64,000 bases of DNA, taken from Minisyncoccota bacterium. GTDB taxonomy: Bacteria; Patescibacteriota; Minisyncoccia; UBA6257; XYB1-36-10. This document shows positions 3,209-62,151 of the stretch, in pieces. The DNA lies in NCBI GenBank assembly GCA_041651415.1, contig JBAZJH010000002.1:20474-84473 (forward strand), given 5' to 3'. The translations under genes were made by a program, and so were the position numbers. The first letter of the stretch is position 1. Every line of letters begins with the position of its first letter. The notes beneath the pieces were generated by a model. It was not told the DNA's origin and did not search any database. It worked only from the letters and a program-made list of their open reading frames with translations.

Positions 3209-3242
3209 AAACAAACTTCACAATTTATAAGAATTATTTGTC

Positions 3243-3280: not shown

Positions 3281-3291
3281 TCAAAATACTT

Positions 3292-6066: not shown

Positions 6067-6158
6067 AGTGGGTTTTTTAAATAATTTTAATTAATGCGTA
6101 CTCCCATTATAAACCAAGAATAAGAAAAGCAATGTGGAAAACGCTTAAGGGGATTTTT

Positions 6159-6188
6159 TTGACTTTTTGTCTAAAAAATAGCTATAAT
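6159..6188 (+). promoter_or_regulatory. Sigma70-like promoter (TTGACT-18-TATAAT)
   Basis: ttgact, 18-nt spacer, tataat upstream of two tandem small ORFs. Confidence 0.6.
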
Positions 6189-6243
6189 AAAAATAGAAAA
6201 ATAAAAAAACGATTCACAAATTTGAAAAGAAAGGAAGAAAAAG

Positions 6244-6348
6244 ATGAAGAGTTTTTTAAAGTTGGAGATTATCGGAATTATAGCGCTTTTGGCACTTATA
6301 ATTCTTCCATCAACAAGAGAATATATATTTTATCCAGACAGATATTAA
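6244..6348 (+). CDS. Small hydrophobic peptide A (34 aa)
   Basis: RBS aaaggaag upstream; MKSFLKLEIIGIIALLALIILPSTREYIFYPDRY; first of a tandem pair under one promoter and terminator. Confidence 0.5.
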   Translation: MKSFLKLEIIGIIALLALIILPSTREYIFYPDRY

Positions 6349-7043: not shown

Positions 7044-7116
7044 TGCTCAAATTTTTGAATAAGTTTATAAATAAACTTATTCAAAATTTGGCAAATTTGG
7101 TATAATATAGAACAAA

Positions 7117-11319: not shown

Positions 11320-12813
11320 TTATTTGCGGAATTTGGGAGTGACCCAGAAGCCGAGACGCCACTTGCCGCCAAGAGCAAGCCTGGTTTGAGCTTCAATAGC
11401 CGGAAGAGAACCGAAGACAATCAGAGTGAAGGGCATTAGAGCCCACTGCAGAAGAAAGAGAAGATAGTGCCACCATTTAAACCATTTAGGAGGAGACGGG
11501 AGGAGAAGAATGGAAATAATAGCGGAAGAAACGATACCGATAGAAGCGAGACTCATTATGAAGCGGGTGATTTCCGGAAGATTATAAGACAAAAGAGAAT
11601 AGTTGAAATTTTCACCGCCAAGATAAATCGGGAGCCATCCTAAAGCAAAAATCAAAAGAGAATTGGTCGCCCAAGAGTGATAGCCCTCCAAAGTATTAAA
11701 GGTCCAATAAAGTTTTGTTTTGAGCGGCATCTTTTTATTTTTAAAAAATCCCCGCAAAAGATAAGGAACATTTTCCGAACCCCAAGCCCAGCGACGCTGC
11801 TGCTTATAAAGATTTTTCATCGAACCCCAAAAAGTAGAAGCGACGTTGGCATCCATGCAAACCGGATAGTTCAGCGGAACGACATGCCAGTCGCCGGAAT
11901 TGCCGATAAGGCATTGCCAAAAAATGCGCGAATCTTCCGAGACCAAATCTTTTTCCCAAAAACCGATATTGACGAGAGCTTTAAAAGGCATCGAGTGCGA
12001 AGAAAAAGTGGTGAGGCGTTCCGGGCGGGCCTGCTGCATCATCTGCCAAAAAGTGGTGGAAAAAGAAACAACGCGAGCAAGGGAAGGAGCTTGAAAAATA
12101 TTATTGGTAAAAAGAGGAATTGGCTGGAAGCTGGATTTCTCCGGATGCTCCGCAGTCAAAAAATTATAAGAAAGAATGCCAAAATATTCCGGCAGAACTT
12201 GCGTATCGACATCAAAAACGGAAACCAGAATATTTTCATATGGAATATTTTTTTTATCAATAACAAGCTCCTTAACTTTTTGCGCCATCCAAGTTTCGTT
12301 TGAGCCTTTGCCGGGAATTTCATCGGGAAGGTCGGAAGGATGAACGGTAATCAAGAAGTCCAAAAAATTATTCTGAAATTCATTTTTTATTTTTTCGGCG
12401 ATGGAAACAGCTTCTTCCCCCGCCCGCTCCTCCGCGCCGAGAACAAGAATAAATTTTTGCGAAGGATAATTGGATTCCAAAACACTTTTAAAACTTTCCC
12501 TGATAACTTCATAAGGCTCCTTATAAAAAGGAAAAAGAATAAGGTGATAAAGCTCCTCCCAATTTTTTTCGCTTTTTCCGTTTTCAGAAAGATTTTTTAT
12601 TCTTGAAAGCCAGTTGATTTTAAGATTCTTTTTCATTTCCTGAAAAGTGTGCCGCAAATGGAAGGAAAGAAAAATAGTTTTCAAGAGCCAATAAATATCA
12701 AAAAGGATGATAAAAACCGCCACAAAGACGGGGAAAAAATAGGAAAAGAAGAACATGCCGATTATTGTTCCCCAAGCAAGAAGGGCGGGAATAGCTTCAA
12801 AGAGTCTAGACAC
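11320..12813 (-). CDS. Processive family-2 glycosyltransferase (cellulose/chitin-synthase-like membrane GT2)
   Basis: N-terminal TM helices, DxD-like VFDVDTQ, and a QQRRWAWG (QxxRW) motif; 497 aa. Confidence 0.68.
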   Translation of the reverse strand: MSRLFEAIPALLAWGTIIGMFFFSYFFPVFVAVFIILFDIYWLLKTIFLSFHLRHTFQEMKKNLKINWLSRIKNLSENGKSEKNWEELYHLILFPFYKEPYEVIRESFKSVLESNYPSQKFILVLGAEERAGEEAVSIAEKIKNEFQNNFLDFLITVHPSDLPDEIPGKGSNETWMAQKVKELVIDKKNIPYENILVSVFDVDTQVLPEYFGILSYNFLTAEHPEKSSFQPIPLFTNNIFQAPSLARVVSFSTTFWQMMQQARPERLTTFSSHSMPFKALVNIGFWEKDLVSEDSRIFWQCLIGNSGDWHVVPLNYPVCMDANVASTFWGSMKNLYKQQRRWAWGSENVPYLLRGFFKNKKMPLKTKLYWTFNTLEGYHSWATNSLLIFALGWLPIYLGGENFNYSLLSYNLPEITRFIMSLASIGIVSSAIISILLLPSPPKWFKWWHYLLFLLQWALMPFTLIVFGSLPAIEAQTRLALGGKWRLGFWVTPKFRK

Positions 12814-13306: not shown

Positions 13307-13311
13307 CAAAA

Positions 13312-13337
13312 TAAAAAACGCCTCTCGGCGTTTTTTA
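13312..13337. terminator. Bidirectional intrinsic terminator
   Basis: aaaaaacgcc tctc ggcgtttttt. Confidence 0.8.
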
Positions 13338-13344
13338 TTTTTTA

Positions 13345-23371: not shown

Positions 23372-23389
23372 CTCCGACCGAAGTCGGAG
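23372..23389. repeat. CTCCGAC-loop-GTCGGAG hairpin (copy), followed by a 15-bp perfect palindrome overlapping the tRNA 3' end
   Basis: ctccgaccgaagtcggag followed by gagcacaattttaac ttt agttaaaattgtgctc (23387-23420). Confidence 0.6.
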
Positions 23390-23415
23390 CACAATTTTAA
23401 CTTTAGTTAAAATTG

Positions 23416-23487
23416 TGCTCCCAGCAGGAATTGAACCTGCATCACAGCCTTCGGAGGGCCGCGTTCTATCCGTTAAACTATGAGAGC
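23416..23487 (-). tRNA. tRNA-Arg (anticodon CCG)
   Basis: Hand-folded: acceptor GCTCTCA/TGGGAGC, anticodon stem CGGCC/GGCTG with loop CTCCGAA, T-loop TTCAATT. Confidence 0.85.
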
Positions 23488-35798: not shown

Positions 35799-35838
35799 GG
35801 GGGAGAAGGAAAAAATTTTCCTTCTCCCCCGCTTTTTT
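35799..35838 (+). terminator. Strong orphan hairpin-terminator (gggggagaagg / ccttctccccc + T-run)
   Basis: 11-bp perfect GC-rich stem followed by gcttttttg; no plus-strand CDS upstream; lies inside a 430-bp hairpin-dense, GC-richer non-coding stretch. Confidence 0.55.
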
Positions 35839-36082
35839 GTTTCGGAGCGCGCGTTCTCCGAAACGGCGGTTCCGACGTGAGACAAAAATCCCGGGCCGGA
35901 AACGAACAACGCCCCTTGGCGGTTCTCCGCCCCGCGGCAGAAAGCAAAAATCAGGCCAAGAAAACCGTTCGCCGGAGCTTTTGCCGCAAAATCAAAGTGC
36001 TATAAACACTTGAAAAAAAGAATAAACCAAGATGATTTTTTTATCAACCCCGTTAGAAAATATTTTCTAACGGGGCAAAAAA

Positions 36083-39259: not shown

Positions 39260-39298
39260 CCCGCATCGCGTAAGGTTTACGCGATGCGGGTTTTTTAT
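39260..39298. terminator. Bidirectional intrinsic terminator
   Basis: cccgcatcgcgtaa / ttacgcgatgcggg 14-bp stem followed by ttttttattt. Confidence 0.85.
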
Positions 39299-41714: not shown

Positions 41715-42920
41715 ATGGGGAAAATAAATACGGACAGCAAAAAAATAAAGGAGCTTTTAGAGCGAGGGGTGGAGGATATTTTTGTAAAAACCGATTTAGA
41801 AAAAAAGCTCAAATCAGGGAAAGAATTGCGAGTTAAACTGGGGTTTGACCCGACAGGGGCAAAAATTCATATCGGCAGAGCAGTGATTTTGAGGAAACTT
41901 AGAGAATTTCAAAATTTGGGGCATAAAATAGTTTTTATTGTTGGAGATTTCACAGCAAGAATCGGCGACCCGTCCGACAAACTAGATAAAAGACCGATGC
42001 TTTCGAAAAAGGAGATAAAAAAAAATTTAAAAGATTATAAAAAACAAATCGGGAAAATAATAAATCTTGAAAAAGCGGAGTTTTGTTTCAACAGCAAATG
42101 GCTAAAAAAGCTTAATTTAGAAGAAATATCGGAGCTGGCAGAAAGTTTTACCGTGCAACAGATGCTCGCCCGGAGAAACTTTAAAGAAAGATATGAAAAG
42201 GGAGAAGAAATAAGCATAAGAGAATTTCTTTATCCCCTGTTGCAAGGATATGACAGCGTAGCCGTTAAAGCAGATGTGGAGATTGGAGGATTTGACCAGC
42301 TTTTTAATTTGAAAGCGGGGCGGACGATACAAAAACATTTCGGACAAGAGGAACAAAATGTTTTAACCGGACAAATGCTTGAAGGAACAGACGGAAGAAA
42401 AATGTCCACCAGTTGGGGTAATGTGATAAACATAACCGACGAGCCGAATGAAATGTTCGGGAAAATAATGAGCGTGAAAGACGAGCTTATTCCCAAGTAT
42501 TTTTTATTATGCACAGATACGGAAGAACAAGAAATTGAGAAGGTAAAGAAGGAAATGAAGAGCGGGAAACTGAACCCGAGAGACGCAAAATTAAAACTGG
42601 CTTTTGAGATTGTAAAAATTTATCATGAGAAAAAGAAAGCGGAAGAAGCAGAAAAAGAATGGGTGAGAGTTTTTTCAAAAAAAGAATTACCGGAGATTTC
42701 AGATTTAGAGATAAAAGAAGCGAGTATAGATTTAATCGGAGTTTTATTAAAGATGGAGAAAATGAGCAAAAGCGCGGCTTGGAGATTGGTTGATGGAGGA
42801 GGAGTAAGAGTAAACGGAGAAAAAGAATTAGATAAAAGAAGAGAATTTACCGATAATAACGAGGAGGTTGTCATAACAATAGGAAAGAAGAAACATTCCG
42901 TAAAATTGAAATTTGTTTAA
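41715..42920 (+). CDS. tyrS: Tyrosine--tRNA ligase
   Basis: GFDPTGAKIHIGRAV (HIGH region), GDFTARIGDPSDK, KMSTS (KMSKS-like) and a C-terminal S4-like domain; N-terminus aligns to bacterial TyrRS. Confidence 0.82.
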   Translation: MGKINTDSKKIKELLERGVEDIFVKTDLEKKLKSGKELRVKLGFDPTGAKIHIGRAVILRKLREFQNLGHKIVFIVGDFTARIGDPSDKLDKRPMLSKKEIKKNLKDYKKQIGKIINLEKAEFCFNSKWLKKLNLEEISELAESFTVQQMLARRNFKERYEKGEEISIREFLYPLLQGYDSVAVKADVEIGGFDQLFNLKAGRTIQKHFGQEEQNVLTGQMLEGTDGRKMSTSWGNVINITDEPNEMFGKIMSVKDELIPKYFLLCTDTEEQEIEKVKKEMKSGKLNPRDAKLKLAFEIVKIYHEKKKAEEAEKEWVRVFSKKELPEISDLEIKEASIDLIGVLLKMEKMSKSAAWRLVDGGGVRVNGEKELDKRREFTDNNEEVVITIGKKKHSVKLKFV

Positions 42921-42950
42921 GAAAGCTCTTTAACTGCGCTCAGAGACTAA

Positions 42951-43382
42951 TCAAAAACTTTTGAACCAGATGGATTCTATTTTTCTTTTGCCGTTATAAG
43001 TGAAGTGGTGAGTTTTGGGAACGCGTTTTTCAGAGCTGTTACTGACAGCCTTATTTTTTCCAAGATAGAATCCAATGTGCTTGTGGCTGTTTTTCTCTTC
43101 CCAAATAAGGACGCTTCCCTCTTTCGGAGTTTTTATTCTTTTCCAGCCGGAGTTTTCGAGGTCTTTTACAGTTCCTTCAACAGTGGCGTGAAGATTATTC
43201 ATTTGGCCGAAGATTTTTAAGACAGAGGAAACAAAAAAAGCGCAGGATAATTTTCCGTTTTTTAAAATATCGATTTTTTTAGAATCGGTTTTAGCAAAAG
43301 CATTTTGAAAAGAATTAGCGCCAACAGCTTTTTTTATAAAAGAAAGATAAGTTAAAAAATTAAGAGAAACTAGTTTTTTCAT
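42951..43382 (-). CDS. Secreted NlpC/P60-like (papain-fold) putative cell-wall hydrolase
   Basis: Signal peptide; Cys (GKLSCAFF), a downstream His (HKHIGFYLG) and a third polar residue in NlpC/P60/CHAP-like spacing; start trimmed to MKKLVS because the track ORF runs through tRNA-Gly. Confidence 0.4.
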   Translation of the reverse strand: MKKLVSLNFLTYLSFIKKAVGANSFQNAFAKTDSKKIDILKNGKLSCAFFVSSVLKIFGQMNNLHATVEGTVKDLENSGWKRIKTPKEGSVLIWEEKNSHKHIGFYLGKNKAVSNSSEKRVPKTHHFTYNGKRKIESIWFKSF

Positions 43383-43456
43383 GGAGCGGGCGAGGAGAGT
43401 CGAACTCCCATCTCGACCTTGGCAAGGTCGCATAATAACCGCTATACGACGCCCGC
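43382..43456 (-). tRNA. tRNA-Gly (anticodon GCC), CCA encoded
   Basis: Acceptor GCGGGCG/CGCCCGC, anticodon stem CGACC/GGTCG with loop TTGCCAA, T-loop TTCGACT. Confidence 0.9.
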
Positions 43457-43533
43457 TTACGAAAATGATGATAACAAGAAAAAGAGACGGAAACAAGAAA
43501 AAGATTCTAGATTCCCGCTTTCGCAGGAATGAC

Positions 43534-43559
43534 AATTTTGTGTCCCCGGAAGGAATTGA
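43534..43559 (-). repeat. 26-nt duplicate of the tRNA-Arg 3' end (att-like direct repeat)
   Basis: aattttgtgtccccggaaggaattga is identical to 43716-43741, which spans the last 19 nt of tRNA-Arg plus 7 nt downstream. Confidence 0.7.
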
Positions 43560-43722
43560 CCACAAATAAATTCCCTGACGGAAATTTTTCTCGGCCCCGC
43601 CTCGGGGTATTCGCCTTTTTCCCTTCGGGAAAAAACTCACACAACCCTCCGGCTTTCAATTTCTTTCTTATATCCATAAATGGATATAAGAAGCGACATA
43701 AAATTAGCTGAAGCAAATTTTG

Positions 43723-43794
43723 TGTCCCCGGAAGGAATTGAACCCTCATCACGAGCTCCGCAAGCTCGTGTCCTATCCATTGAACGACGGGGAC
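43723..43794 (-). tRNA. tRNA-Arg (anticodon reads GCG; isotype needs confirmation)
   Basis: Acceptor GTCCCCG/CGGGGAC, D-arm GTTC/GGAC, anticodon stem CGAGC/GCTCG with loop TTGCGGA, T-loop TTCAATT. Confidence 0.72.
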
Positions 43795-43810
43795 GGATTA
43801 AGCAAAAGAA

Positions 43811-44290
43811 TTAAAAACCGAGGAATTTGGATATTTCTTCAAAGAGAGAACTCTTATGTTCTATCTCGGCAAGGTAATTATTAAGAAAAACTCGGATTTT
43901 TTCAATATCTTCGGTTTTAGCCGGAATTCGAAAGTTAAAAATAGAAACATTATTTTTTAAAAAATAAATGAAGCTTCTCTTACCTTCGTTTTTATCTATG
44001 GAAAAACTTTCAAAGGAATCCCAAGGATAAAGGCGGTTTTCTATTTTTAGGCCTTCATTTCCGAGAGAAAAATCATATTCTTCGCGATTGGAATTAGCCA
44101 AGAAAAAGAGAGAGACTTCCGATAGAATTATAAGCAAGGCAAAAAGAAAGTTTTTTTGCCAAAGAGAAAAAGCGACGAGAAGAAGCGCGGCAATAACAGA
44201 AAGCCAAAGCCAAGAAGAATTCTCGGAGGAAAATTCAAATTCCGGAGCGCGCCATTCGATTTTTTGATTATTTTCAGAAAAAGATGTCAT
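43811..44290 (-). CDS. T4SS-operon small membrane protein (2 TM + cytoplasmic domain)
   Basis: Last gene of the overlapping minus-strand operon; 159 aa. Confidence 0.55.
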   Translation of the reverse strand: MTSFSENNQKIEWRAPEFEFSSENSSWLWLSVIAALLLVAFSLWQKNFLFALLIILSEVSLFFLANSNREEYDFSLGNEGLKIENRLYPWDSFESFSIDKNEGKRSFIYFLKNNVSIFNFRIPAKTEDIEKIRVFLNNYLAEIEHKSSLFEEISKFLGF

Positions 44291-45387
44291 TCTTCTATTT
44301 TCCCGCCGGCAGATCTAATTTTTTCAGCAAAAACTCCGGCAATAACCCTTTCGCTAACATTTCTGCCACTAGGAAATTCTTCAATATAAAATATTCCAGC
44401 ATCGCCAACTTTTGGTCCTCCACCAGTTGTAGAAATAGTTGTCATCATAGAACAGCGGTAATAACCGCCAGTAACAGATTTGCATGTTCCTTTTGCTTCA
44501 GCCGAAACGCTACCGTAATCTTTTGAAGCAAAAGAGAAAGTGAGATTATCGCCGGATGGCAAAGAAAGCGGAGCGCCAACGCCATCATAAGTATATTCAC
44601 TAGCCATTCTATATTTGCTTTCTTCGATAAGAAAATTTTTTAGTTCAGTTTTTATCTGTTCATTGGCGGCTTCGGAAAAAGGGAGGCCAAAATCATTAAT
44701 AATACTCGCATCACTATAAGCGATAGTTGATTTCCAAGATGCTTCACCGGAACTTCCAGTTTCCGGAATATCAACGTTATAAGTGCCGTCTTTTCTAATA
44801 GTAATTCTATCAACTCCGTCTCTTCCAGGATTGATGCCGATAATAACTAGTCTATTTCCCTCGGCCGCGGAAGTTTTTGCAATATTTATTTGATTTTCTT
44901 TTTTGGAATATTCTTCTTTTAAAGTATCTTCAAATTTTTTAGAGCTTTCGGAAGAAGAACCGCCTGACGACCCGATGAGACTGGAAGAAGAAGTGAGGCA
45001 AGACCCAGAAGTGTCTCGGCTAGACCAAAAATTGACAGATTTTAAAATACAAGGATTGATAGTGTCCAAAATAACGATTGAGCCGAAAAGAAGAAGAACG
45101 CCGTAAACAACTTGAGTAAGGCCGTCTTTTGCGTCACCAACCATTGATTCATTAGCAGCGCCAAGAATATATTTGACGCCATGAAAGATAATCATAAAAA
45201 AAGCGACCAAACCAACGGCAGCCAGAGCAAATTGGAAGATAGCGGCGACAAAAGAACCAAGGTCGGGAGAAGAACCGAGAGTGAAACCGGGAATAGGAGT
45301 GGTGATTTCATAAGTAACTTTCGCAAAAGCCAAGAACGGAAAAAATAATGGGGAAAAAAGGAAAATATTTTTAAGAATTTTTTTCAT
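44287..45387 (-). CDS. VirB2/TrbC-like pilin-fold protein with a Ser-rich linker and ~230-aa C-terminal domain
   Basis: Signal peptide followed by two hydrophobic helices (GSFVAAIFQFALAAVGLVAFFMIIF ... VVYGVLLLFGSIVILDTI), as in T4SS pilins, then a low-complexity linker and an extra domain; 366 aa. Confidence 0.5.
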   Translation of the reverse strand: MKKILKNIFLFSPLFFPFLAFAKVTYEITTPIPGFTLGSSPDLGSFVAAIFQFALAAVGLVAFFMIIFHGVKYILGAANESMVGDAKDGLTQVVYGVLLLFGSIVILDTINPCILKSVNFWSSRDTSGSCLTSSSSLIGSSGGSSSESSKKFEDTLKEEYSKKENQINIAKTSAAEGNRLVIIGINPGRDGVDRITIRKDGTYNVDIPETGSSGEASWKSTIAYSDASIINDFGLPFSEAANEQIKTELKNFLIEESKYRMASEYTYDGVGAPLSLPSGDNLTFSFASKDYGSVSAEAKGTCKSVTGGYYRCSMMTTISTTGGGPKVGDAGIFYIEEFPSGRNVSERVIAGVFAEKIRSAGGKIEE

Positions 45388-45781
45388 TTTGATTTTTTTC
45401 TTTTTTATTGCCGGCAGCTTCTTTTTTATCTTCCCCTTTTTTAGAGGCGATTTCTGTCGCTTTTTTCAGAACCGGATTATTAGAGAGAGAAATGGCGATA
45501 ATAACAGTGACGGTTTTGACCGGCAAGAGATTGATAAAAGGGATAAATTCAATAAGACCTCCCGCCAGAAACCAAGCGCCTCTCGCTCCTTTTATTATAA
45601 GCCAGAGGTAAACAAAACCAAAAATAAAAGTATTGATAAGCCAAGTGAAAACAACAGACAAAGGGGCGACGGGCGGAACCAAACTAAAAGCATAAGAAAG
45701 AAGCTCGGCAGTGTCGGCAAAAAGGCAGATGAGAATTAAAATAATGCTTTCAGGAAGGGAAAACTTTTTTTGTTCATCCAT
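45371..45781 (-). CDS. T4SS-operon polytopic small membrane protein
   Basis: 136 aa; overlaps its neighbours by 8-17 nt (translational coupling). Confidence 0.5.
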   Translation of the reverse strand: MDEQKKFSLPESIILILICLFADTAELLSYAFSLVPPVAPLSVVFTWLINTFIFGFVYLWLIIKGARGAWFLAGGLIEFIPFINLLPVKTVTVIIAISLSNNPVLKKATEIASKKGEDKKEAAGNKKEKNQNEKNS

Positions 45782-47495
45782 TTTTATCCTTATTTAAAAT
45801 CTCTTCAGGGTTAGTGGTGATAATCTGATGTTCAAAAAAAGAAGCGACAATTTCAACGGCCACATGCTTTAAACCGGCAAAGAAAAGACCATTGCCGACT
45901 TCAGTTTCCACCAGGAAATTCTTTTCCGTTTCGGAAAGAGCAAAAATTTTTGAGAGTATTTCAGCGGAAGTGTTGGACTGTTTTAGAAGAAGCTGGAGAG
46001 AGGAATTGGTGACAATAGGGCGACCAAAAGAAGAGTTTAGAAAATCCTCGACATCTTGAGTGATAGTCGTGATGCCAAGAAAATATTTTCTGGCTCTTTT
46101 AACAAGGCCGAAAAGGAAGCTCGCGGAAGCTTCGTGTTTCATCATAATCCAAGCTTCATCAATAAAGACAAGGCGTTTTTTGAATTCGGAGCGGATAAGA
46201 TTCCAAATAAAACTCAAAACAATATGCATGGCGATGGGGCGAAGCTCTTCTTCCAAATCACGAATAGAAAAAACAACCAAGCGATTTTTGACATTGATAT
46301 TGGTCGGTTTGTTAACAAAGCCGGCAAAGCTGCCGCTCGTGTAACGATAAAGCTTGGCGGCCAGGTCTTTTCCGCCATCCATATTGTTCAGAACAGCTTC
46401 CAAGTCGCTTAAAAGAGGCGCGGGAGCGAAAGAAAAATCTTTTTCAGGAGTGATTTCTCTGGAAGCATAAGTTTCAGTAATAGCTTTATCGAGAAGAGAT
46501 TCTTCGGAAGGAGTGATATCGCCCACCATCAATTTTATCAAAGTGGCGAGATTAACAATGTGGGATTTAAGAGTTTCAGCCGCATCTTCGTCCTCAGGAA
46601 CAGCAGGAACATCAAAAGGATTAATATTGTCTTCGGAAGTCAAAGAAATTTTTATATGAGAACCGCCGACGGCTTCGGCAAGATTTTCATATTCATTTTC
46701 CGGGTCAATAACTAAGACATCGGAGCCAACCATTAAGGAACGGAGAATTTCCATTTTGGCAAAATAAGATTTTCCGGAACCGGATTTGGCAAAAATAACC
46801 ATATTGGCGTTTTCGAGAGAAAAGCGGTCAAAAATAACAAGAGTGTTATTGTGTTTGTTGATGCCATAAAGGATTCCTTTATCGGAAGTTAAGTCGGTTG
46901 AAATAAAAGGAAAGAAGGAAGAAATAGGAGAAGAATTAAGCGGAACATTAACTTTGAGCTCGTCGTTTTCCAAAGGAAGAACGGAGAAGAAAGCTTCAGT
47001 TTGCTGAAAAGTCGCCGGTTTGGTGTAAATGAGTTTGCTTTCAAGAAGAAGATTGATTTCTTTTTCAAGGTCATTCAGTTCTTCGACGGTTTTTCCGTAA
47101 AAAGCGATATAAATTCCAACATTAAAGAGCTTTTCCCGCGCTTGTTGGAGAGCATCGCGAAGAGTTTCGACATCCTGATAAGCGGTTTCAAGAGCCGGGT
47201 CGCGAACCATCCCCTTTTCTTCATATTCGTTTATCTGCGCTTCCACGCGAGCGGCTTTTTTTCTAAGATTTTTCAAAGCGATGCCAGTGTCAACGGGATG
47301 AATAAAAATAGAAATATCGACAAGGCGAGGAAGATTGATGATAGGCAAAAACCAATCGCTTGTTATATAACGAGGATAAGAAAGGATAAAAATAGTCCGA
47401 AGAAAATTATTGCCAATTTTGACGTGATTAGGAGAAAGCTCCACAGCCGAAGGAGCAATGACATCTTTTATTTCTTTAAATTTTTCTTGGTCCAT
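45774..47495 (-). CDS. virB4: VirB4/TrbE/PrgJ-family T4SS ATPase, C-terminal part (residues equivalent to ~230-800)
   Basis: Walker A FAKSGSGKSY, Walker B LVFIDEAW, and the RTIFILSYPRYITSDWF block that follows the N-domain in VirB4; its ATG lies in an open frame that continues upstream. Confidence 0.85.
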   Translation of the reverse strand: MDQEKFKEIKDVIAPSAVELSPNHVKIGNNFLRTIFILSYPRYITSDWFLPIINLPRLVDISIFIHPVDTGIALKNLRKKAARVEAQINEYEEKGMVRDPALETAYQDVETLRDALQQAREKLFNVGIYIAFYGKTVEELNDLEKEINLLLESKLIYTKPATFQQTEAFFSVLPLENDELKVNVPLNSSPISSFFPFISTDLTSDKGILYGINKHNNTLVIFDRFSLENANMVIFAKSGSGKSYFAKMEILRSLMVGSDVLVIDPENEYENLAEAVGGSHIKISLTSEDNINPFDVPAVPEDEDAAETLKSHIVNLATLIKLMVGDITPSEESLLDKAITETYASREITPEKDFSFAPAPLLSDLEAVLNNMDGGKDLAAKLYRYTSGSFAGFVNKPTNINVKNRLVVFSIRDLEEELRPIAMHIVLSFIWNLIRSEFKKRLVFIDEAWIMMKHEASASFLFGLVKRARKYFLGITTITQDVEDFLNSSFGRPIVTNSSLQLLLKQSNTSAEILSKIFALSETEKNFLVETEVGNGLFFAGLKHVAVEIVASFFEHQIITTNPEEILNKDKNG

Positions 47496-47515
47496 ATATG
47501 TTAAAAAATAAAAAA

Positions 47516-48211
47516 CTAAACTGAAGAAGGAGACTGGCTGGCAATACTCAAATTCTGCTTTTCGATAGTTTCAGGATTATAAAAATTATAGAAAAGTTCA
47601 AGAAGTTCTTCATTATTCAAAGCAACAGCCCGAAGGCCGATACTTTGAATGCCATCGATAACCTGGTCGCTTCTTTGTTTAAGCTGGCGGAAATTTATTT
47701 TTTTATTTTGGTCCAAACTAAGTTTTGCTTTAGCCGCCGCTTCTTTTTTATTGCCCCAAAAATTAAGTTTGGACAAAAAACCTCCGGCAGGAACAAGATA
47801 AACAGGATTGAAAGGAACGACGACTAAAAACATTTTGTTCATAATATCGTTTTCTTTTACAAAAGTTTTGATAAATTCCTTATATTCAAAAATTTGATTT
47901 TTAAGAAGCTCGTTTTGTTCAACCTTCTCAAGGTTTTCAATGTTTTTGATATAGTTATCAATATTAAATTTTCTGGAATGGACGAGAATCTGGACAGGAA
48001 AATCAAGGGAATTCAAAAAACGCTGGTAGGAGTTTAAAATAACGTTTTTTTCCTCCTCCGACATCAAGTCAAGATTGACGCCAGAAACCATAATAATCTG
48101 GCGGAGACCGCCATCTTTAAGGACAACAACATCTTCTTCAATGTTTTCTATCTTGATAAAATCCTGAGTGGAAGGAGCAGCTTTTGCCATACAATTATTA
48201 TAAAGCACCAA
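47516..48211 (-). CDS. virB4: VirB4 N-terminal domain, encoded separately (frameshifted/split virB4)
   Basis: EDVVVLKDGGLRQIIMVSGVNLDLMSEEEK...FPVQILVHSRK aligns to the VirB4 N-terminal domain (DHIVLLEDGSIMSI..GVAFE...HVSIYAHLVRH); stops 19 nt upstream of the next ATG, in a different frame, with no RBS between. Confidence 0.72.
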   Translation of the reverse strand: MVLYNNCMAKAAPSTQDFIKIENIEEDVVVLKDGGLRQIIMVSGVNLDLMSEEEKNVILNSYQRFLNSLDFPVQILVHSRKFNIDNYIKNIENLEKVEQNELLKNQIFEYKEFIKTFVKENDIMNKMFLVVVPFNPVYLVPAGGFLSKLNFWGNKKEAAAKAKLSLDQNKKINFRQLKQRSDQVIDGIQSIGLRAVALNNEELLELFYNFYNPETIEKQNLSIASQSPSSV

Positions 48212-48291
48212 ATAACAAACACCAAATAAATTACAAAAAACAATGAAGCTTTACGGCCTTACGAACCAACAAACAGCCGCTAAAGTTATCG

Positions 48292-48891
48292 TTAGCGATA
48301 ATCAACACGTTTAGCGGCGACTCTTTCACCGGTGAATTTTTCGATAATGGAATACTGGTCTTTTTTGCGGCGGCGGAAGAAAGAAAAATCTCTTTCGCGG
48401 TCGGTGATAACATTTTTAGTAGTCATCATTTTTTCAGACAAGTCTTTTAAACTGGAACCGGTCGTGATGGGAGAAGCTTCTAATTCCGGTTTTTTGGTGA
48501 TAATGATTTTGGGAGCCGGAATTTTAGCTTGAGGAAGAGGAGCGGCTCTTCTTTCAAAAGAAGGAATTTTTATTTTAGAGACTTTATCTTCCAAATCGGC
48601 CGGAGCGAAAATTTCGTGGCGCCACATAATAACGCGCGGGTTCCAATAAAACTCGAGAGCGGAAACAATAACAAGAGGAAGAGAGCGGCCGCTGATTTTC
48701 AGAAAAGCCAGCCCGGCGGCAGAAGCCCAGAAAAAAACAGCGATAACCAGCCAAAGCCAGAAATTAAGCAGATAAAAAAGTCCCAAACTTATTCCAAAAG
48801 CGGCGGCAAAATAAAAAAATTGCTTTAAAGTAAGCGGACCGACTATTTTGTCTTCGGTGTCTATAAATTGAGGTACCTGAAAAGTGGCCAC
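48292..48891 (-). CDS. PrgI/VirB3-like small membrane protein
   Basis: N-terminus VPQFIDTEDKIVGPLTLKQFFYFAAAFGISLGL matches the PrgI-family signature (VPKDl...fGLTlRQ); two TM helices; immediately upstream of virB4, as in Gram-positive T4SS. Confidence 0.5.
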   Translation of the reverse strand: MATFQVPQFIDTEDKIVGPLTLKQFFYFAAAFGISLGLFYLLNFWLWLVIAVFFWASAAGLAFLKISGRSLPLVIVSALEFYWNPRVIMWRHEIFAPADLEDKVSKIKIPSFERRAAPLPQAKIPAPKIIITKKPELEASPITTGSSLKDLSEKMMTTKNVITDRERDFSFFRRRKKDQYSIIEKFTGERVAAKRVDYR

Positions 48892-50108: not shown

Positions 50109-52454
50109 TTATTTTTTTTCTTCTTTTTTTTCTTCGCCTTTTTCTTCTCCTCCTTTCTTCTCTTCTCCAAAATCATCAGAACCAGCAGAGTTTAAAGACT
50201 TTAAAATGTATTTACGAAGTTCCGAATTCACATCTCCACCCTCTTCTCTTTTTTTATTAATAGCATTAAGAACTACTCTATTTTTTGAAAAATCAGAAGT
50301 TTTTATAGAATCCTCAAAATCTTTTGGAGCCAGACCAGAGATAGCTAAAAGAGTTCTATTAGCCATAACGGAACGGTTTTCAGCAGAAGCCTTTTTGACG
50401 ATATTGCTATATTCTTTCGGTTTTAATTTAGAAATAGCGCGATAAGCGGCCTGTTTGCCTCTTTTATTCCACATATCTTCAGTCATCCCCGATTGAAGAC
50501 CTTTTTCCAGAATATCAAACCAAGAGCCTTTTTGAATGTCGGCAGTTTTCATAGTGGATAAAGCTTTAACCAAAGATTCTTCGAAATCAGTAATGACATC
50601 GTTAAGTTCGTCATTTTTCTTTTCATCAACATTTACCAAGTTTTTAATTGATTCCGAAACACTCTTTGCTGTTTCATCTTTTTTATCTTTGGCAAGAGAA
50701 AGGAGAATGTTTGAGGAAGTTATTTTATCGACATCACCGCCGTATTTTTGGAACAAAAGAGGGTCGATATATTCCGGATACTTATCAAGTTTGCCTTTTT
50801 CAGCCAAAAGTTCCTGAAGAGCAGCTTTTTTAACCGGATCGCGCGCCATGCGGGCAGAGGCGGAAATCTGTTCAGGGGAAAGATTCTTTGCTTCTTTTTT
50901 ATAGTTTTCAAAAATAGTGTCGGAAGTTCGTTTTTTGAAACCAAGAACGGTTTTGGCGGTAAGCAAGCCAAGGCGACTGGCTTTTTCGCTTTTTATTTCT
51001 CCTTTTGCCCAGTCTTCCATCCTTTTTCCAACACCGGAACGACCAATAGTTTGACCGTAAGCGAAACGACCAGTGCCAAGAACAGCTTTAGAACGAGTGC
51101 GTCTTAACCAATTAGTGGTTCCATCTTTTACCCAATTTGCCCAACTCATAGTTCCTTTGGCGCCATTAATACCAAATCTATCGGCAACCATCATACTGCC
51201 GAAGAGAAAACCAAGAACGACAATCATATTGCCGATTTGGCCCAAACCATTAACAATCATTATTTTACCGCTTAAAGCAGCTTCCGCGCCGGAGGAAGAA
51301 GCGCCGGAAGAAACGGAGCCGCCAGTCAGCGATTGAATAGAAAGGAAAATAAAAAAACTGGAGACGGGAGCAAAAAAAGTCCAGCGGAGAAAACTATTCC
51401 ACCAAGCGCCGGAATAATTTATTTTCGGGAAAATTCCCGTAAACCAGGCAAGAGGGGCGAGAATAAGAAGGAAAGAAAGAAAAATAAATCTGTAAATAAG
51501 CATAATAGACAAACCAATAAGGAAGATGGCGGAAAAAGCGGTAAAAAGAACGGAAAAAAGAAGAGTGGAAATGCCGACCATAAAAGAAGCAGAAAGGGCG
51601 GAGGCCTTTTGTCCGGCAGATAAAGAAGAAAAATCAACTTCATACAGCTTATTTATATCAAGGAGTTTAGAAAAAGCGGAAGAAATATCAGGCTGACTGA
51701 TAAGAGCATTGTTTAAAAAATAAGCGGTAACAATGCCGGCAAAATCAATCAGAACGCCGCAAATAACAAGAGAAAAATTTATCAGGATAGCAGTTTGAAT
51801 GAATTTAAAAAGCAAGGACTGCATACCATATTGTTTTTGCCGGATAATAGTGGCAAAAGAAATAACGAGGATGCCCAAGACAAAACCAAGGTTGGCAAAA
51901 TCACGGGCGAAAGACCAGCCGTTTTTAATAATGGGCATTTTCATCAGGCGAGAATTCAAACTAAAAGCAAAATCAATCAACCAAGAACCGAAAATAAAAA
52001 CAACGTTCGTGATATAAGAGAGAACATTGAGGAAAAAACCGAAAACACCCTCCATAGCAAAACTAGCAAAACCAGAAATAAAACCTTCGCCAGTATATTC
52101 AGTTTTTAAATCACCACTTTCACTTATTGTATCTTTTCTAGAAACTCCAGAGCCTAAAAGATCATCATCCGTAGAAATTTTTTTTCCTTCAGGATAACTG
52201 TAATAATCATGCCCAGTTGAAATAGCTTCTCCAACACCCGTTGAATAGGAGTAATCCCAAGCATTTTTTTCTTTATTAAAGGTGGCATCTTTTGGAACAC
52301 CAGAAGGACAAGAAGGAAAGGAAGAACAAGTCTGACCATTAGTTGGAGTAGCAGTTTCTTGCGCCAAAACAAAATTGAAGGAAAAAGAAAAAATAACAAA
52401 AAAGAAGGAGAGAAGAGCGGTTTTTTTCCAATTATTTTTTAGCCAAAAAAACAT
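50109..52454 (-). CDS. VirB6/TrbL/ConG-like polytopic membrane protein with a Cys-containing N-terminal ectodomain and a lysine-rich C-terminal tail
   Basis: Signal peptide, ~140-aa extracytoplasmic domain, at least 6 TM helices, then a ~350-aa hydrophilic tail; 781 aa; this layout and operon position match VirB6-like subunits of monoderm T4SS. Confidence 0.55.
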   Translation of the reverse strand: MFFWLKNNWKKTALLSFFFVIFSFSFNFVLAQETATPTNGQTCSSFPSCPSGVPKDATFNKEKNAWDYSYSTGVGEAISTGHDYYSYPEGKKISTDDDLLGSGVSRKDTISESGDLKTEYTGEGFISGFASFAMEGVFGFFLNVLSYITNVVFIFGSWLIDFAFSLNSRLMKMPIIKNGWSFARDFANLGFVLGILVISFATIIRQKQYGMQSLLFKFIQTAILINFSLVICGVLIDFAGIVTAYFLNNALISQPDISSAFSKLLDINKLYEVDFSSLSAGQKASALSASFMVGISTLLFSVLFTAFSAIFLIGLSIMLIYRFIFLSFLLILAPLAWFTGIFPKINYSGAWWNSFLRWTFFAPVSSFFIFLSIQSLTGGSVSSGASSSGAEAALSGKIMIVNGLGQIGNMIVVLGFLFGSMMVADRFGINGAKGTMSWANWVKDGTTNWLRRTRSKAVLGTGRFAYGQTIGRSGVGKRMEDWAKGEIKSEKASRLGLLTAKTVLGFKKRTSDTIFENYKKEAKNLSPEQISASARMARDPVKKAALQELLAEKGKLDKYPEYIDPLLFQKYGGDVDKITSSNILLSLAKDKKDETAKSVSESIKNLVNVDEKKNDELNDVITDFEESLVKALSTMKTADIQKGSWFDILEKGLQSGMTEDMWNKRGKQAAYRAISKLKPKEYSNIVKKASAENRSVMANRTLLAISGLAPKDFEDSIKTSDFSKNRVVLNAINKKREEGGDVNSELRKYILKSLNSAGSDDFGEEKKGGEEKGEEKKEEKK

Positions 52455-52457
52455 TTT

Positions 52458-54851
52458 TTATTTAAGATAGCCGTTAGTTTCTAAGCTGTTTATTTTTGAA
52501 TTAAGAGCGTCAAGATAAGATGTTTTATTTTCAGGATGATTAAAATAAACAAGATTAATTGAAAGACCTAAGAAGTTCTGACTGGCGGAAAAAGGAGCGA
52601 TGGTGGTTTTTATATTTCCGGAAGAAACAATCGTCACAGCTGAACCGCTATCCGTTTTTTGATTAAGATTAATCGGAAGTTTGTTGGTTATATCAAAATT
52701 ATTACCACTTTCACTTCCTAAGCCAGCGGAAAATAAATTCAGAAGTTCCGCTCGTTCTTTTTGAGAATAATCCAAATCGGTTTCAGAAACATCCGTTTTC
52801 CAGATATCGGCGGATTTAGAAAGAAGATTATTTTTAAGAATCGGAAGATTAGAATTTGAAGAATCAACATCTCCCAGATAGAGATAAGCTTTATTTAATT
52901 CAGAGACAACAGCTTCTTTATTCTGCCGAAAAGAAATCTTCCGACTTAAAGATTTACTATCAAGAGAAAGAGAGTTAAAAGAAGAAATCTTTCCACTAAG
53001 AGAAGAAAGATAATTGTCAAAATTATCAGGGTGAAGATAGAAAAAATTAGAAGCAACCGTAGAAGAAAGAGATAAGCCAAGATAATTTCCATAACCGGAA
53101 GTCGTTTTATTAAATGTGTATTTTATTTCATTATTAAAGAAATTGAATCCAGACAGAGAGAGGGAGACTGCGTTCGTATAATAAATTTTCGTTGTTTTTT
53201 GCCTCATTCCCGTGCCGGAAACAGTTTCTTCAAAACAAGAGATATCCTTTGATATGGTCTTATTATCAACTTTTAAACCATTACCAACATTAAGATTTAG
53301 AGGAAGAGTGTTAAGCAAATCAAAATTTTCACTTTCTTCATTAATGGAAGAGTCGCCGGCCAAAAAGAGATTGGAAAGTTCTTCTTTTTGAAGAGAAGAC
53401 GCCAATATTTCAGCCTCAGTTTCCGAGCCGGAAGAAGCGGATATTTCATCATTAAGCTTTTGAAGGATTGTCTGAAGTTTCTTTTTAAGTTCATCCACTT
53501 TTGCTATTTTGACGCTTCTTTCACTTACGGGAAGAAAATAGAAAATATCTTCAGAACATATTTGATTGCTGGAGCCGCCGGTATCTTTATCTTTAACTGA
53601 ATATTTCAAATTAAGGGAAAGATTTATGTCTTCAAGATAAAGAATAGCTCTTTTAACTTCGTTAAAAGAAGAAATTTTATTTTGTTTATAACTGCCAAGC
53701 GAAGAATAAAGAGAATCGTAATTAGAAGAGGAATCAAGAGAAGAGCTCAAATCAAGATTGGTGGTGTTTTCTATTTCTTCTTTGATAAGATCATCGATAC
53801 TTTCCACGTTTTTCGGAACAGAATCATAGGCGGAAGAAAAATCATTATCAGAACTTTCATTAAAAATAATTTCAGAAATATCTTCTAAAGAAACACTACC
53901 AAACTCGCCGAGGGAAAAATTTGCTCCGTCAATATCGCCAATATTAAGAGAAAAAGTACCTAAACTTTCCCCGTTTAAAATACCTTGAGCCACACCCATG
54001 ATTCCGGAGACGCCACTGCCTAAGAGCTTATTAAAAACAGATGAAGAAATAGCACTGACGAAGCTCGCAAAATCATCGGCATTAACAATATAATCAATAT
54101 CAGAAGTAACGGCGCGAGAAAGAGTGTCACCAATAGTTTTGCCGGGAGTAGTACTGACTTCATTAAGACAAAATTCTTCTCCCGCTTCGTTAGTAGCTGT
54201 TTTCAGACATTTTTTTGTGGAAAGAAATCCCCCGCCGGCAAGCGCTTCGTTTTTGGCGGCTTCGGCTTTAGCGACGGCTTTGCGGTCAACTATGTCTTTA
54301 GCAATAAAAGATTTTCCGTAATAATTATTCTCAGGGAAAGTGTTTTTAGAAAAACTTTCCCAGTCAAATTGGCTGTATTGTTCATTATATTTTTCTTCAA
54401 CAGTTTTCTCCTTGGTTTCTGAAACAAAAGAACTGCCGCTTAATTGAGATTTTATAGCCGAGTCAAAACTATTTCCGGAGCTAAAGAAACCGCTTGATTC
54501 AAGACCTTGAATAGCTTCTTTTTTACCCAAAGAGTAATTTTGGTTAAGAAAACTTTCCCAGTTAGTGACAAATTTAGGTTCACTGCCGCCAGCGATGCCT
54601 GTGACCATCTGGCTAACAAGAGCGTCGAGCAAGCTTCGCTTAAGATTTTCGGTGGTAAGTTTAAAGATAAACTCCATAATCATTCTTGCTAAGCTCCCGG
54701 TAGTGGCGCCGGAAGTGATGCCGAGAGGCCCCAAAACGCCCGGATTTGTTTCAAGAGTCGGAACAGCGGCAAAAGAAGAAGCAGGGAGGCAAGAAAATAA
54801 AAATAATAAAACAAGAGAAGCGGCGGAAGATTTATAAAAAAAGTTTTTCAT
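52458..54851 (-). CDS. Large secreted Ser/Asn-rich protein (797 aa), possibly a T4SS-associated surface/adhesin protein
   Basis: Clear signal peptide; low-complexity S/N/D-rich sequence. Confidence 0.58.
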   Translation of the reverse strand: MKNFFYKSSAASLVLLFLFSCLPASSFAAVPTLETNPGVLGPLGITSGATTGSLARMIMEFIFKLTTENLKRSLLDALVSQMVTGIAGGSEPKFVTNWESFLNQNYSLGKKEAIQGLESSGFFSSGNSFDSAIKSQLSGSSFVSETKEKTVEEKYNEQYSQFDWESFSKNTFPENNYYGKSFIAKDIVDRKAVAKAEAAKNEALAGGGFLSTKKCLKTATNEAGEEFCLNEVSTTPGKTIGDTLSRAVTSDIDYIVNADDFASFVSAISSSVFNKLLGSGVSGIMGVAQGILNGESLGTFSLNIGDIDGANFSLGEFGSVSLEDISEIIFNESSDNDFSSAYDSVPKNVESIDDLIKEEIENTTNLDLSSSLDSSSNYDSLYSSLGSYKQNKISSFNEVKRAILYLEDINLSLNLKYSVKDKDTGGSSNQICSEDIFYFLPVSERSVKIAKVDELKKKLQTILQKLNDEISASSGSETEAEILASSLQKEELSNLFLAGDSSINEESENFDLLNTLPLNLNVGNGLKVDNKTISKDISCFEETVSGTGMRQKTTKIYYTNAVSLSLSGFNFFNNEIKYTFNKTTSGYGNYLGLSLSSTVASNFFYLHPDNFDNYLSSLSGKISSFNSLSLDSKSLSRKISFRQNKEAVVSELNKAYLYLGDVDSSNSNLPILKNNLLSKSADIWKTDVSETDLDYSQKERAELLNLFSAGLGSESGNNFDITNKLPINLNQKTDSGSAVTIVSSGNIKTTIAPFSASQNFLGLSINLVYFNHPENKTSYLDALNSKINSLETNGYLK

Positions 54852-54855
54852 AAAA

Positions 54856-55596
54856 TTAGAAAGTGATGTTATTTTTCAGCAAATAATCATTGATAGAATC
54901 TTTCAGCTCCAGGAATTTGGCGTCAAAATATTCATCGGACTTAACAGCAAGAAGAGTCAAAAGCGGGTCTTGTTCATAATTTTGAAGCTGTTTTAAAATA
55001 AGAAGCTTGGCGGAAAGAAGAGAAATCTCTTCTTTATGGAAAGAAACAACGCTTTTAGGAACGGAAAGGGCGTAAAATTCTTTAATCATTTTTTCATAAG
55101 AAAAAATCAGAGAAGCAAGGGCGTTAGAAACCGTGGTTTCAGGGTTGAGACTGTTTACAGAAGAAGAATTATTCATGAGAATTTCCTGAAACCCGGAAAA
55201 ATAAGAGGAGACAGCTTTGACACTAATGTCTTCCGAAATTTTTAAACTGCCGTCTTTAATTTCCGGCTTAATCGATTCCGGATTAAAGTTTTTTAGAGAA
55301 GTTTCAACGGCTTCGTTTATCAATGTTTTATCGGGAAGCTTGATTACGCCGACACCGGAATTTTCAATGTTTTCTTCGGCCACTTTTTGAATAACATTTT
55401 TAGCCAATTCATCGGTAAAATTTCTGGAAGAAGCGGGAGAGTTTGATTCAAAATTACTGATTTTATTCAAGGTTTCGTTTTGCTTCTGTTTTTCCAGATA
55501 ATCGGAGCCGATAATATAAAAAAACAAAAGCGCGGAAAGCCCGATTAAACCAAAAACAAGCGGGCCTAATATTTTTTTGTTGGAAAATAAATTCAT
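54856..55596 (-). CDS. Membrane-anchored T4SS-operon protein (VirB8-like topology)
   Basis: First gene of the operon; one N-terminal TM helix and a ~200-aa extracytoplasmic domain. Confidence 0.52.
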   Translation of the reverse strand: MNLFSNKKILGPLVFGLIGLSALLFFYIIGSDYLEKQKQNETLNKISNFESNSPASSRNFTDELAKNVIQKVAEENIENSGVGVIKLPDKTLINEAVETSLKNFNPESIKPEIKDGSLKISEDISVKAVSSYFSGFQEILMNNSSSVNSLNPETTVSNALASLIFSYEKMIKEFYALSVPKSVVSFHKEEISLLSAKLLILKQLQNYEQDPLLTLLAVKSDEYFDAKFLELKDSINDYLLKNNITF

Positions 55597-57495: not shown

Positions 57496-57613
57496 ATAAC
57501 AAATTACAAAAAAGTTTGTTAGTTAAATGTGATTCTTCGACTCGTCGGATTCGCTCAGTAAATTTAATTACTGGATTCCCGCCTACGCTGGAATGACACG
57601 TTAAATAAATTAA

Positions 57614-61960: not shown

Positions 61961-62151
61961 TGTTAAAATTTTATCTTAAAATTTTAAAAAGCCAAAATTA
62001 TAAAATGAAACTTCATGGTTTTACGAACAAAGCATCTTGAGTTTTATCCCGCCCCGAGAGAGTTTTTGCAAAAATTAAAAAAATATTTTAAATTCACAAA
62101 AAACAAGAATTAAAAAATCTGCCGCTGGCAGATTTTTTAACATTCGATTTT

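Follow-up and report, generated by a model that had tools for sequence, protein, structure and literature searches.

A hairpin-rich module with tRNA-matched ends behind tRNA-Arg in a Minisyncoccota bacterium: a possible miniature insertion element

Introduction

What leaves an exact second copy of the end of a tRNA gene directly behind that gene, with hardly any DNA between the two? We asked this of a 64,000-nt stretch of a Minisyncoccota bacterium (assembly GCA_041651415.1, contig JBAZJH010000002.1, positions 20,474–84,473), hereafter the window, in which the last 19 nt of a tRNA-Arg gene and 7 nt of its flank recur downstream. A first-pass annotation made from the sequence alone offered two explanations: the scar of an element excised or deleted in this genome, or a tiny tRNA-targeting miniature inverted-repeat transposable element (MITE). 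Our comparison with related loci does not support the scar of a recently excised island. Short noncoding modules whose two ends copy the adjacent tRNA also lie behind other tRNA genes, and the answer that we tentatively prefer is that the window holds an old, inherited, partly decayed unit of a miniature, nonautonomous insertion element that targets tRNA ends.

Results

The gene in question is tRNA-Arg(GCG), at 43723–43794 on the minus strand (Rfam, 59.8 bits, and ARAGORN), which encodes no CCA. Its final 19 nt (43723–43741; tRNA positions ~55–73) and the 7-nt trailer CAAAATT (43716–43722) make up copy 1 of the direct repeat, S plus trailer, at 43716–43741. Copy 2, S′ plus trailer, lies at 43534–43559, also on the minus strand, on the 3′ side of the gene and in the same orientation. 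The copies match at 26 of 26 positions and are 182 bp apart from start to start, with 156 bp between them. The 26-mer, AATTTTGTGTCCCCGGAAGGAATTGA, occurs exactly twice in the window; no third copy or far attR was present there with up to three mismatches, and none appeared in 100 shuffles. Downstream, tRNA-Gly(GCC) (43382–43456, minus; ARAGORN and Rfam) bounds the 265-bp spacer that separates the two tRNA genes.

Both the duplication and its coordinates are as first annotated, and the likeness to attL/attR holds as well, since an intact tRNA gene with a cognate 3′ fragment downstream in the same orientation is how tRNA-integrated islands are recognized for mapping (PMC4383910). The Islander scheme for such islands places the fragment boundary at the anticodon loop or in the T-stem/T-loop region, and the 5′ edge of the window repeat falls in the T-loop, at position ~55 (57–60 at the other loci described below). 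The tyrosine integrase that the same scheme expects inside the interval is missing from these 156 bp, in line with the earlier remark that no integrase lies between the copies. An independent public assembly (L081) is identical to the window. Another contig (L082, Logan SRR8542065), otherwise the same, stops inside the anticodon loop of tRNA-Arg(GCG); the cause may be a difference between strains or a break in the assembly here.

The orthologous locus was recovered in three further lineages, L001, L086, and L083/L084, whose flanking proteins are 69–87% identical to those of the window. The source genome is patescibacterial (Paceibacterota), and L001, annotated as Candidatus Paceibacterota, is its closest species representative, with a tyrosyl-tRNA synthetase (TyrRS) 76% identical to the window's; L086 is of the same species as L001 (98.5% identity over 2.6 kb). 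L001 and L083 have the gene order of the window, a tRNA-Arg(GCG) that is 100% identical, and a copy of its 3′ end downstream. The copies match at 25 of 25 positions in L001, 197 bp apart from start to start, and at 27 of 28 in L083, 136 bp apart. No integrase was found between or near the copies in any of the relatives. The trailer within the repeat is CAAAATT in the window and CATTTTTT(TCT) in the relatives, and within each genome both copies carry the same one. Such a lineage-specific trailer indicates that the copy was made on local DNA and not from the mature tRNA.

Judged from these comparisons, the tRNA-Arg duplication appears old or recurrent and is not a private scar. The suggestion of an element excised or deleted in this genome is not supported, since L001, L086, and L083/L084 carry the tRNA-Arg end copy too. 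Indeed, the relatives come close to the unvarying shared duplicate that the first-pass annotation had named as the mark of an ancient fixed feature: the duplicate is kept, and the interior is variable.

That interior is informative. Between the copies, the window and L001 cannot be aligned. L001 and L083 share a stretch of ~145 nt that is 92.4% identical, as against 75–78% for their flanking genes. It starts with a segment, A (CGGAAGGAATTGAAC), that is the exact reverse complement of tRNA positions 53–67; continues through a core (core1) with two perfect hairpins, P2 (GGGAAAAC-loop-GUUUUCCC) and P3 (AAAACC-loop-GGUUUU); and terminates in S′, the tRNA-end copy. In L083, S′ is followed by a second A and then by 26 nt continuing as a block that is identical at 36 of 37 positions to window 43629–43665 (minus), although the flanking genes of the two genomes are only 70–76% identical. 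This shared block runs directly into the tRNA-Gly promoter region. L083 thus has two tandem units, the second of them truncated. L001 has core1 only, L083 has core1 and the truncated second unit, and the window has only the second type, which we call core2, at full length and with a decayed A (11/13), three hairpins, and S′.

L086 is identical to L001 in the core, in S′, and in all that lies downstream. Beyond the A/core boundary on the upstream side (2700–3300), tRNA-Pro, tRNA-Arg(TCT), and tRNA-His replace tRNA-Arg(GCG) and the type IV secretion system-like (T4SS-like) operon that precedes it elsewhere; two membrane proteins without homologues on record also lie on this side. The junction is either a rearrangement at the module or a chimeric contig joined via a second similar module. 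We sought the tRNA-Pro cluster in relatives through a neighboring 169-aa protein, which has no homologue on record, and for that reason L086 could be an assembly chimera. Adaptation of its A segment to tRNA-Pro was considered on the strength of one base.

When the spacers were searched by BLAST against all loci compared, core1-like sequence was found behind different tRNAs of other Patescibacteria. In L005 (Colwellbacteria), it lies behind tRNA-His, with a decayed copy behind tRNA-Arg(CCT). In L016, it follows a tRNA that is cut by the locus edge, has UUC in its anticodon loop, and is probably tRNA-Glu. The module is ~110–130 nt long and noncoding, without coding capacity, and its units share one plan: the left end is the local T-loop/T-stem copied in inverted form, a conserved core with two hairpins follows, and the right end is a direct copy of the local 3′ end. 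A matches the adjacent tRNA at 13/13 positions in L016, 11/11 in L005, and 15/15 in L001, and S′ does so at 17/18 (the encoded CCA included), 14/15, and 25/25 positions, respectively. In L016 and L005, S′ consists of the T-stem 3′ strand, the acceptor 3′ strand, and the discriminator of the local tRNA. A tracks the variable T-loop bases (AGTC, AATC, or AATT before the invariant GAAC), even where S′ does not contain them. P2 and the junction preceding it are identical between L001 and L016. The window's unit has both kinds of end, the left one matching at 11/13 positions and the right one at 26/26. The pairing of an intact tRNA with a downstream, like-oriented fragment of its own 3′ end is found in the window, L001, L083, L005, L016, and a further locus, L052.

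A covariance model of the P1, P2, and P3 core (R1), built from four members, scores those members at 103–132 bits and the decayed copy at 30 bits. R1 gave six matches in ~0.49 Mb of mostly Patescibacteria loci, with two copies in L005, and no other match at E < 0.3 in ~0.98 Mb of compared loci, about half of them from other phyla. Of the 63 tRNAs in the compared loci, only those of this locus family have an exact copy of their 3′ end within 1.5 kb. In the distant genome L099, a tRNA-Arg(GCG) with the same 3′ end is followed by the next tRNA 25 nt later, which is the unoccupied arrangement. In L342, a Colwellbacteria TyrRS locus tried for extension of the family, no module was found.

Displaced tRNA ends of other kinds were also seen. 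In L052 (Peribacteria; 5990–6293, minus), tRNA-Arg(GCG) is followed by a pseudo-tail with an unrelated ~85-nt T-loop insertion. This tRNA has an acceptor-stem mismatch, C4-A69, at which a 3′-end copy ~156 nt downstream (ATTCCTGGCGGGGTCACCA) would pair perfectly; the displaced copy is part of a decayed second tRNA-Arg, the one with the ~85-nt insertion. In L006 (5611–5740), a mini pseudo-tRNA-Ala of 47 nt lies 8 nt beyond tRNA-Ala(TGC) and consists of a truncated 5′ part, the T-arm, and the acceptor 3′ strand. From these two cases, tRNA-end copies behind tRNA genes recur in this group. Directly after the tRNA-His module of L005, at ~12690–12785, are three head-to-tail copies of a ~28-nt unit (ATCCTTCGACGTGACTCAGGATGTTTCC).

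In the six-member alignment of the family, 90.6% of the paired cells can pair, compared with at most 66% when the partners are slid. Double-sided changes affect seven pairs, of which four belong to P1, two to P2, and one to P3; the covariation in P1 follows from both of its arms being copied from the tRNA. L001 and L083 differ at 10 positions, six of which are among the 8 loop positions of P2 and P3 (Fisher p = 1e-6). Together with the pairing, this concentration indicates that the hairpins are under structural constraint, at the level of either RNA or single-stranded DNA. Four members were folded, and their minimum-free-energy structures have a common multi-branch shape closed by A:S′. The folding z-scores are −4.9 for L001, −3.5 for the tRNA-His member of L005, and −1.8 for the window unit, the last being marginal relative to shuffles. 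Neither folding energy nor the comparison of G-U with A-C pairs discriminates between the strands. The inverted ends formed by A and S′ extend over 7–15 bp, and their sequence is that of the local tRNA, with no family-wide terminus.

The setting of the module bears on the same choice between RNA and DNA. In L016 and L005, a long terminator hairpin starts inside the tRNA 3′ end, a U-tract follows, and A comes immediately after, as the far end of a long interrupted inverted repeat (tRNA 53–65 ... trailer hairpin). A module located downstream of a strong terminator without room for a promoter argues against simple co-transcription. Acceptor and trailer bases that do not pair are nonetheless copied exactly, as would be expected if the copying took place at the DNA level.

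Known RNA classes do not describe the module. Even at permissive E-values, Rfam matched only tRNAs in window 42800–44200, L001, and L083. A hammerhead ribozyme, with CUGANGA and GAAA cores around three helices and an NUH cleavage site, was rejected by inspection: CUGAGGA is present only in L016, the others having UGGCGGA, UGCUGGA, and AUGGAGA, and there is no stem III. With group II intron domain V, L001 has only the 8-mer GAGCCGUA in common, without its complementary strand. A retroviral-type primer-binding site, or copying from the mature tRNA, does not fit a tRNA-Arg family repeat that carries the gene trailer and not CCA. As for a second, split, or intron-bearing tRNA, ARAGORN run with introns returned nothing at default thresholds and implausible opposite-strand calls at relaxed ones.

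Read from tRNA-Arg on the minus strand, the window's spacer begins with 23 nt (43693–43715) that have no counterpart in the relatives. A perfect palindrome without strand follows at 43665–43692, with 13-bp arms (43665–43677 and 43680–43692) and a 2-nt center. A*, the decayed inverted copy of the tRNA-Arg T-loop and T-stem 3′ strand, occupies 43655–43667 (minus); it reads GAAAGAAATTGAA against GGAAGGAATTGAA, both differences being G-to-A. It is overlapped by the 37-nt block shared with L083, in which CCGGAGGG (43645–43652) is complementary to CCUUCCGG of both repeat copies. Three minus-strand hairpins come next. The first, UUUUUUCCC-GAAG-GGAAAAA (43616–43635), corresponds in sequence to the P2 3′ arm and the following junction, the P2 5′ arm having been lost. 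The second, CCCCG-AGG-CGGGG (43595–43607), is at the position of the family P3 (AAAACC-GAGG-GGUUUU), and the third, AAAUUUCC-GUCA-GGGAAUUU (43568–43587), resembles AAAAUUUCC-UAU-GGAAAUUUU in the tRNA-His module of L005. A decayed T-arm, UGUGG-UCAAUU-CCUUC (43549–43564, minus), precedes S′ of copy 2.

Two more features lie between S′ and tRNA-Gly, both on the minus strand. The hairpin ATTCCTGCGAAAGCGGGAAT, flanked by GTC and CTAGAAT (43511–43530), is a separate small dispersed repeat directly after S′. Its general form, GTC-ATTCCYGCGAAAGCRGGAAT-CYAGAAT, recurs at 57575–57594 of the window (3 mismatches), at 3846 and 4825 of L026, and at 2848 of L085, all unrelated intergenic places in Patescibacteria. 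It fits the pattern ATTCCC(N8)GGGAAT of dRS3, which in Neisseria is a target for phage integration (PMC3898611), and the match may be a coincidence. A conserved stretch resembling a tRNA-Gly promoter (43468–43496), TTGTTT-17-TATCAT with the second hexamer preceded by TGt, was identified by eye, and a consensus scan made no call there; the region is 91% identical to L083 over 46 nt. At the other end of tRNA-Gly, the encoded CCA overlaps the ATG of an NlpC/P60-like gene (43380–43385; ..GCTCCATGAAAAAAC..), so the start of that mRNA abuts the tRNA 3′ end. L001 has CTATG at this position.

The palindrome had been singled out in the first-pass annotation as an 11-bp structure between the copies. It is present, but its arms are 13 bp long and it is not special to this spot. 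The window has 13 distinct perfect palindromes with arms of at least 12 bp, compared with ~0.15 per Markov shuffle; examples, with arms of 12–17 bp, are those at 933–966, 7053–7086, 13308–13341, 35799–35830, 36048–36075, 39260–39290, and 62110–62140. The long palindromes inspected are located after tRNA genes, and most of the 13 look like long bidirectional terminators. Because it is one of so many, the palindrome at 43665–43692 is a generic intergenic hairpin of this genome. The relatives have other, unrelated hairpins at the equivalent place. It does not qualify as an intrinsic terminator, being absent from the terminator scan, with an A+T-rich stem and no U-tract on either strand.

A different hairpin arrangement was seen at tRNA-Arg(CCG) (23415–23487, minus). 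There, a 17-bp perfect hairpin (23386–23421), GGAGCACAAUUUUAAC-UAAA-GUUAAAAUUGUGCUCC, begins inside the tRNA 3′ end, and its 3′ arm overlaps a second hairpin, CUCCGAC-UUCG-GUCGGAG. The pair amounts to a miniature of the series tRNA end, antisense copy, partial sense copy.

The repeat sits at the edge of the T4SS-like operon, as first annotated. The operon (DUF5673, T4SS pilin, VirB4-like ATPase, and PrgI) occupies 43811–48891 on the minus strand and is followed there by tRNA-Arg, the spacer, tRNA-Gly, and the NlpC/P60 gene. This adjacency looks incidental from the sequence comparison, as the operon and tRNA-Arg are syntenic in relatives and housekeeping genes flank the region (TyrRS, UvrB, UvrA, and UvrC on one side, KsgA and UvrD on the other). 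The same two facts rule out the operon as an island bounded by the repeat. The large open reading frames tested lie between 22.6 and 63.5 kb and extend ~20 kb to each side of the repeat; no integrase or recombinase domain was found in them. The operon has at its upstream end three large open reading frames (781, 797, and 246 aa; 50109–55596, minus) without a Pfam match at E ≤ 0.001.

Discussion

From the repeat, its conservation in relatives, the module family, the tRNA-matched ends, and the constraint on the hairpins, we infer, with due caution, a mobile element of miniature size. Where best preserved, a unit consists, on the tRNA strand, of A (the inverted T-loop and T-stem 3′ strand), the P2/P3 core, and then S′, a direct copy that begins in the 3′ half of the local T-loop and extends through the tRNA end and the trailer, or through the CCA where this is gene-encoded. 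Such an element would enter the DNA just behind a tRNA gene and duplicate or restore the segment from T-loop to end, so that the outcome resembles an attL/attR pair or a long duplication of the target, with an enzyme presumably supplied in trans. Since every unit would regenerate its target, units could stack in tandem, as they seem to have done in L083, and could be lost again by recombination between tRNA-end copies. The simplest history would be an ancestral array of the tRNA followed by units 1 and 2, from which different lineages lost different units. The window would then retain a diverged core2 unit with a decayed A, inherited vertically at this locus and not recently inserted. The position of the module right after the tRNA terminator and U-tract in L016 and L005 favors a DNA-level element over a co-transcribed RNA. 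The tiny tRNA-targeting MITE of the first-pass annotation comes nearer the mark than a scar does: the interior would belong to a family of noncoding modules with tRNA-matched ends, but the short, fixed-length target duplication of a MITE is missing, the direct repeats being 15–28 nt long and variable.

Several observations weigh against this proposal. The window unit's place in the family is indirect, resting on the 36/37 block shared with L083, the similar hairpin order, and the A*/S′ ends, and R1 does not match the unit at any E up to 10. The independent loci known so far number no more than about five, and the 64-kb window, with 7 tRNAs, has a single unit. No clean filled/empty pair was found among close relatives, the unoccupied tRNA-Arg(GCG) being that of the distant L099. 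Direct repeats of 16–28 bp exceed ordinary transposase target duplications. No autonomous relative, recombinase, or transposase for the modules was found in the scans made, and phage and plasmid collections, to the extent scanned, gave no match. In viral contigs, a 20-mer had no match, and the core patterns had only chance matches among those listed, as judged by context. In metagenome scans, a 29-mer from the tRNA body had no match, and a 19-mer of the repeat matched only unrelated tRNA-Arg genes without duplicates, besides chance matches. No standard mechanism of an integrase or a transposase accounts for the inverted T-arm copy A, which could be a guide that matches the target, the result of a repair process that forms palindromes, or one side of a functional helix. 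Finally, conservation above that of coding sequence and variation confined to loops fit a functional RNA equally well.

Such an RNA, a structured small RNA behind tRNA genes that is either trailer-derived or independently transcribed, is the principal alternative and in our judgment somewhat unlikely. A and S′ would form its closing helix and P2 and P3 its functional hairpins, A might pair with the T-arm of the precursor tRNA, and the repeat would be a by-product of constructing the closing helix. This would account for a module that is 92% identical beside protein genes at 75–78%, for substitutions gathered in hairpin loops, for the A:S′-closed fold common to four members, and for the constant orientation relative to the tRNA at all loci; the 90.6% of paired cells, the seven pairs changed on both sides, and the z-scores of L001 and the L005 tRNA-His member agree with it. 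However, the covariation is mostly in P1, where it is automatic because both arms copy the tRNA, and folding energy favors neither strand. No Rfam family matches, a strong terminator and U-tract separate tRNA and A in L016 and L005 and leave no room for a promoter, and the window copy lacks the P2 5′ arm and has a z-score of only −1.8. Function also leaves unexplained why S′ copies the unpaired acceptor strand and the trailer exactly. A further alternative, which we hold to be improbable, is a purely local origin: direct and inverted duplication of the tRNA 3′ region and terminator, for example by slippage or template switching at hairpins, with copies that decay to pseudo-tRNA tails, a likeness kept by short-tract conversion, and neither function nor mobility. 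The genome is rich in long perfect hairpins; tRNA-Arg(CCG) has downstream the complement of its own 3′ end and a second overlapping hairpin; L006 and L052 have tandem pseudo-tRNA tails; a decayed T-arm precedes the window S′; and A in L016 and L005 is the far end of a long interrupted inverted repeat made of tRNA end and terminator. What a local origin does not explain is a homologous core behind different tRNAs in distant genomes, with P2 and its junction identical between L001 and L016, or a module conserved above coding sequence.

Equally improbable, as we see it, is a classical attL/attR remnant, in which an island with a tyrosine integrase, a prophage, or an integrative element had its crossover in the T-loop of tRNA-Arg and was later mostly deleted, the core being the arm of an attachment site of a related element family. 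An intact tRNA with a displaced 3′ fragment in the same orientation is the standard island signature, and of 3,919 islands that have been mapped, about half use the region of the T-stem (PMC4383910). At every locus, the repeat has its 5′ edge within the 3′ half of the T-loop, and the displaced copy of L052 pairs better with the acceptor 5′ strand, as if supplied by an element. Independent deletions, however, would not have converged on one ~110-nt unit behind four or five different tRNAs. No integrase was found at any locus or in the large open reading frames tested around the window repeat, and the 20-mer and core are in no viral contig among the matches listed. To our knowledge, moreover, the inverted T-arm copy has no place in known attachment sites of the lambda type.

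It is useful to contrast the modules with known systems. They resemble tRNA-integrated islands and prophages of the Islander kind in the intact tRNA, the downstream 3′-end copy that begins in the T-loop in the same orientation, and the possibility of tandem arrays. Unlike islands, they have an interval of 110–180 bp rather than kilobases, no integrase, and a conserved hairpin interior with an inverted T-arm copy. With cis-mobilizable elements (CIMEs), they share att-like flanking repeats, the lack of a recombinase of their own, and again possible tandem arrays; CIMEs, however, are kilobase-scale and derive from a known integrative conjugative element, whereas no parent element is known for the module. 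MITEs and palindrome-associated elements derived from insertion sequences (IS), including IS200/IS605, are likewise small, noncoding, and hairpin-rich. The A and S′ ends of the module may correspond to their inverted-repeat ends, and the module seems similarly dispersed within and between genomes, at intergenic sites just after terminators. It differs in ends that copy the local tRNA, repeats of 16–28 bp, a very low copy number, and the absence of any autonomous partner found. The neisserial mosaics, RS sequences bounded by the 20-bp dRS3, are also intergenic mosaics of small units reshuffled between lineages (PMC3898611), although they belong to another phylum and are bounded by dRS3, where the module is bounded by a tRNA end. 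tRNA-matched inverted and direct ends around a ~100-nt conserved hairpin core are found in none of islands, CIMEs, MITEs, and neisserial arrays.

Guide-bearing elements provide no more than an analogy. Type V-K CRISPR-associated transposons carry a short CRISPR RNA (crRNA) matching a tRNA gene, and the module may be compared with this crRNA, with the guide RNAs of TnpB/IscB, and with the bridge RNA of IS110 in that a structured scaffold accompanies a variable segment that matches or complements its own tRNA target. The module is unlike them in having no protein genes, a much smaller scaffold, and matching segments that are self-complementary. A conserved scaffold with an A antisense to one tRNA's T-arm could make it a guide-like, protein-less tRNA-targeting module, or a trailer RNA that pairs with the tRNA, and we consider this idea unlikely at present. 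If it were true, a reprogrammable A would direct the module, as DNA or as an RNA intermediate with a trans-acting enzyme, to the end of a tRNA gene, whose tail would be regenerated, leaving the host gene unharmed and the site reusable. We know of no description in bacteria of a guide-like relation between a noncoding module and tRNA genes. An antisense T-arm segment acting as a guide would offer a minimal model of sequence-directed tRNA-gene targeting without an adjacent protein gene.

More broadly, the modules mimic the attL/attR signature, so island finders that rely on tRNA fragments could misread them. Bacteria of the candidate phyla radiation have tiny genomes with few recognizable mobile elements. 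In such genomes, modules of ~120 nt that copy the local tRNA end, stack in tandem, and mark rearrangement junctions would be an unrecognized source of plasticity at tRNA loci.

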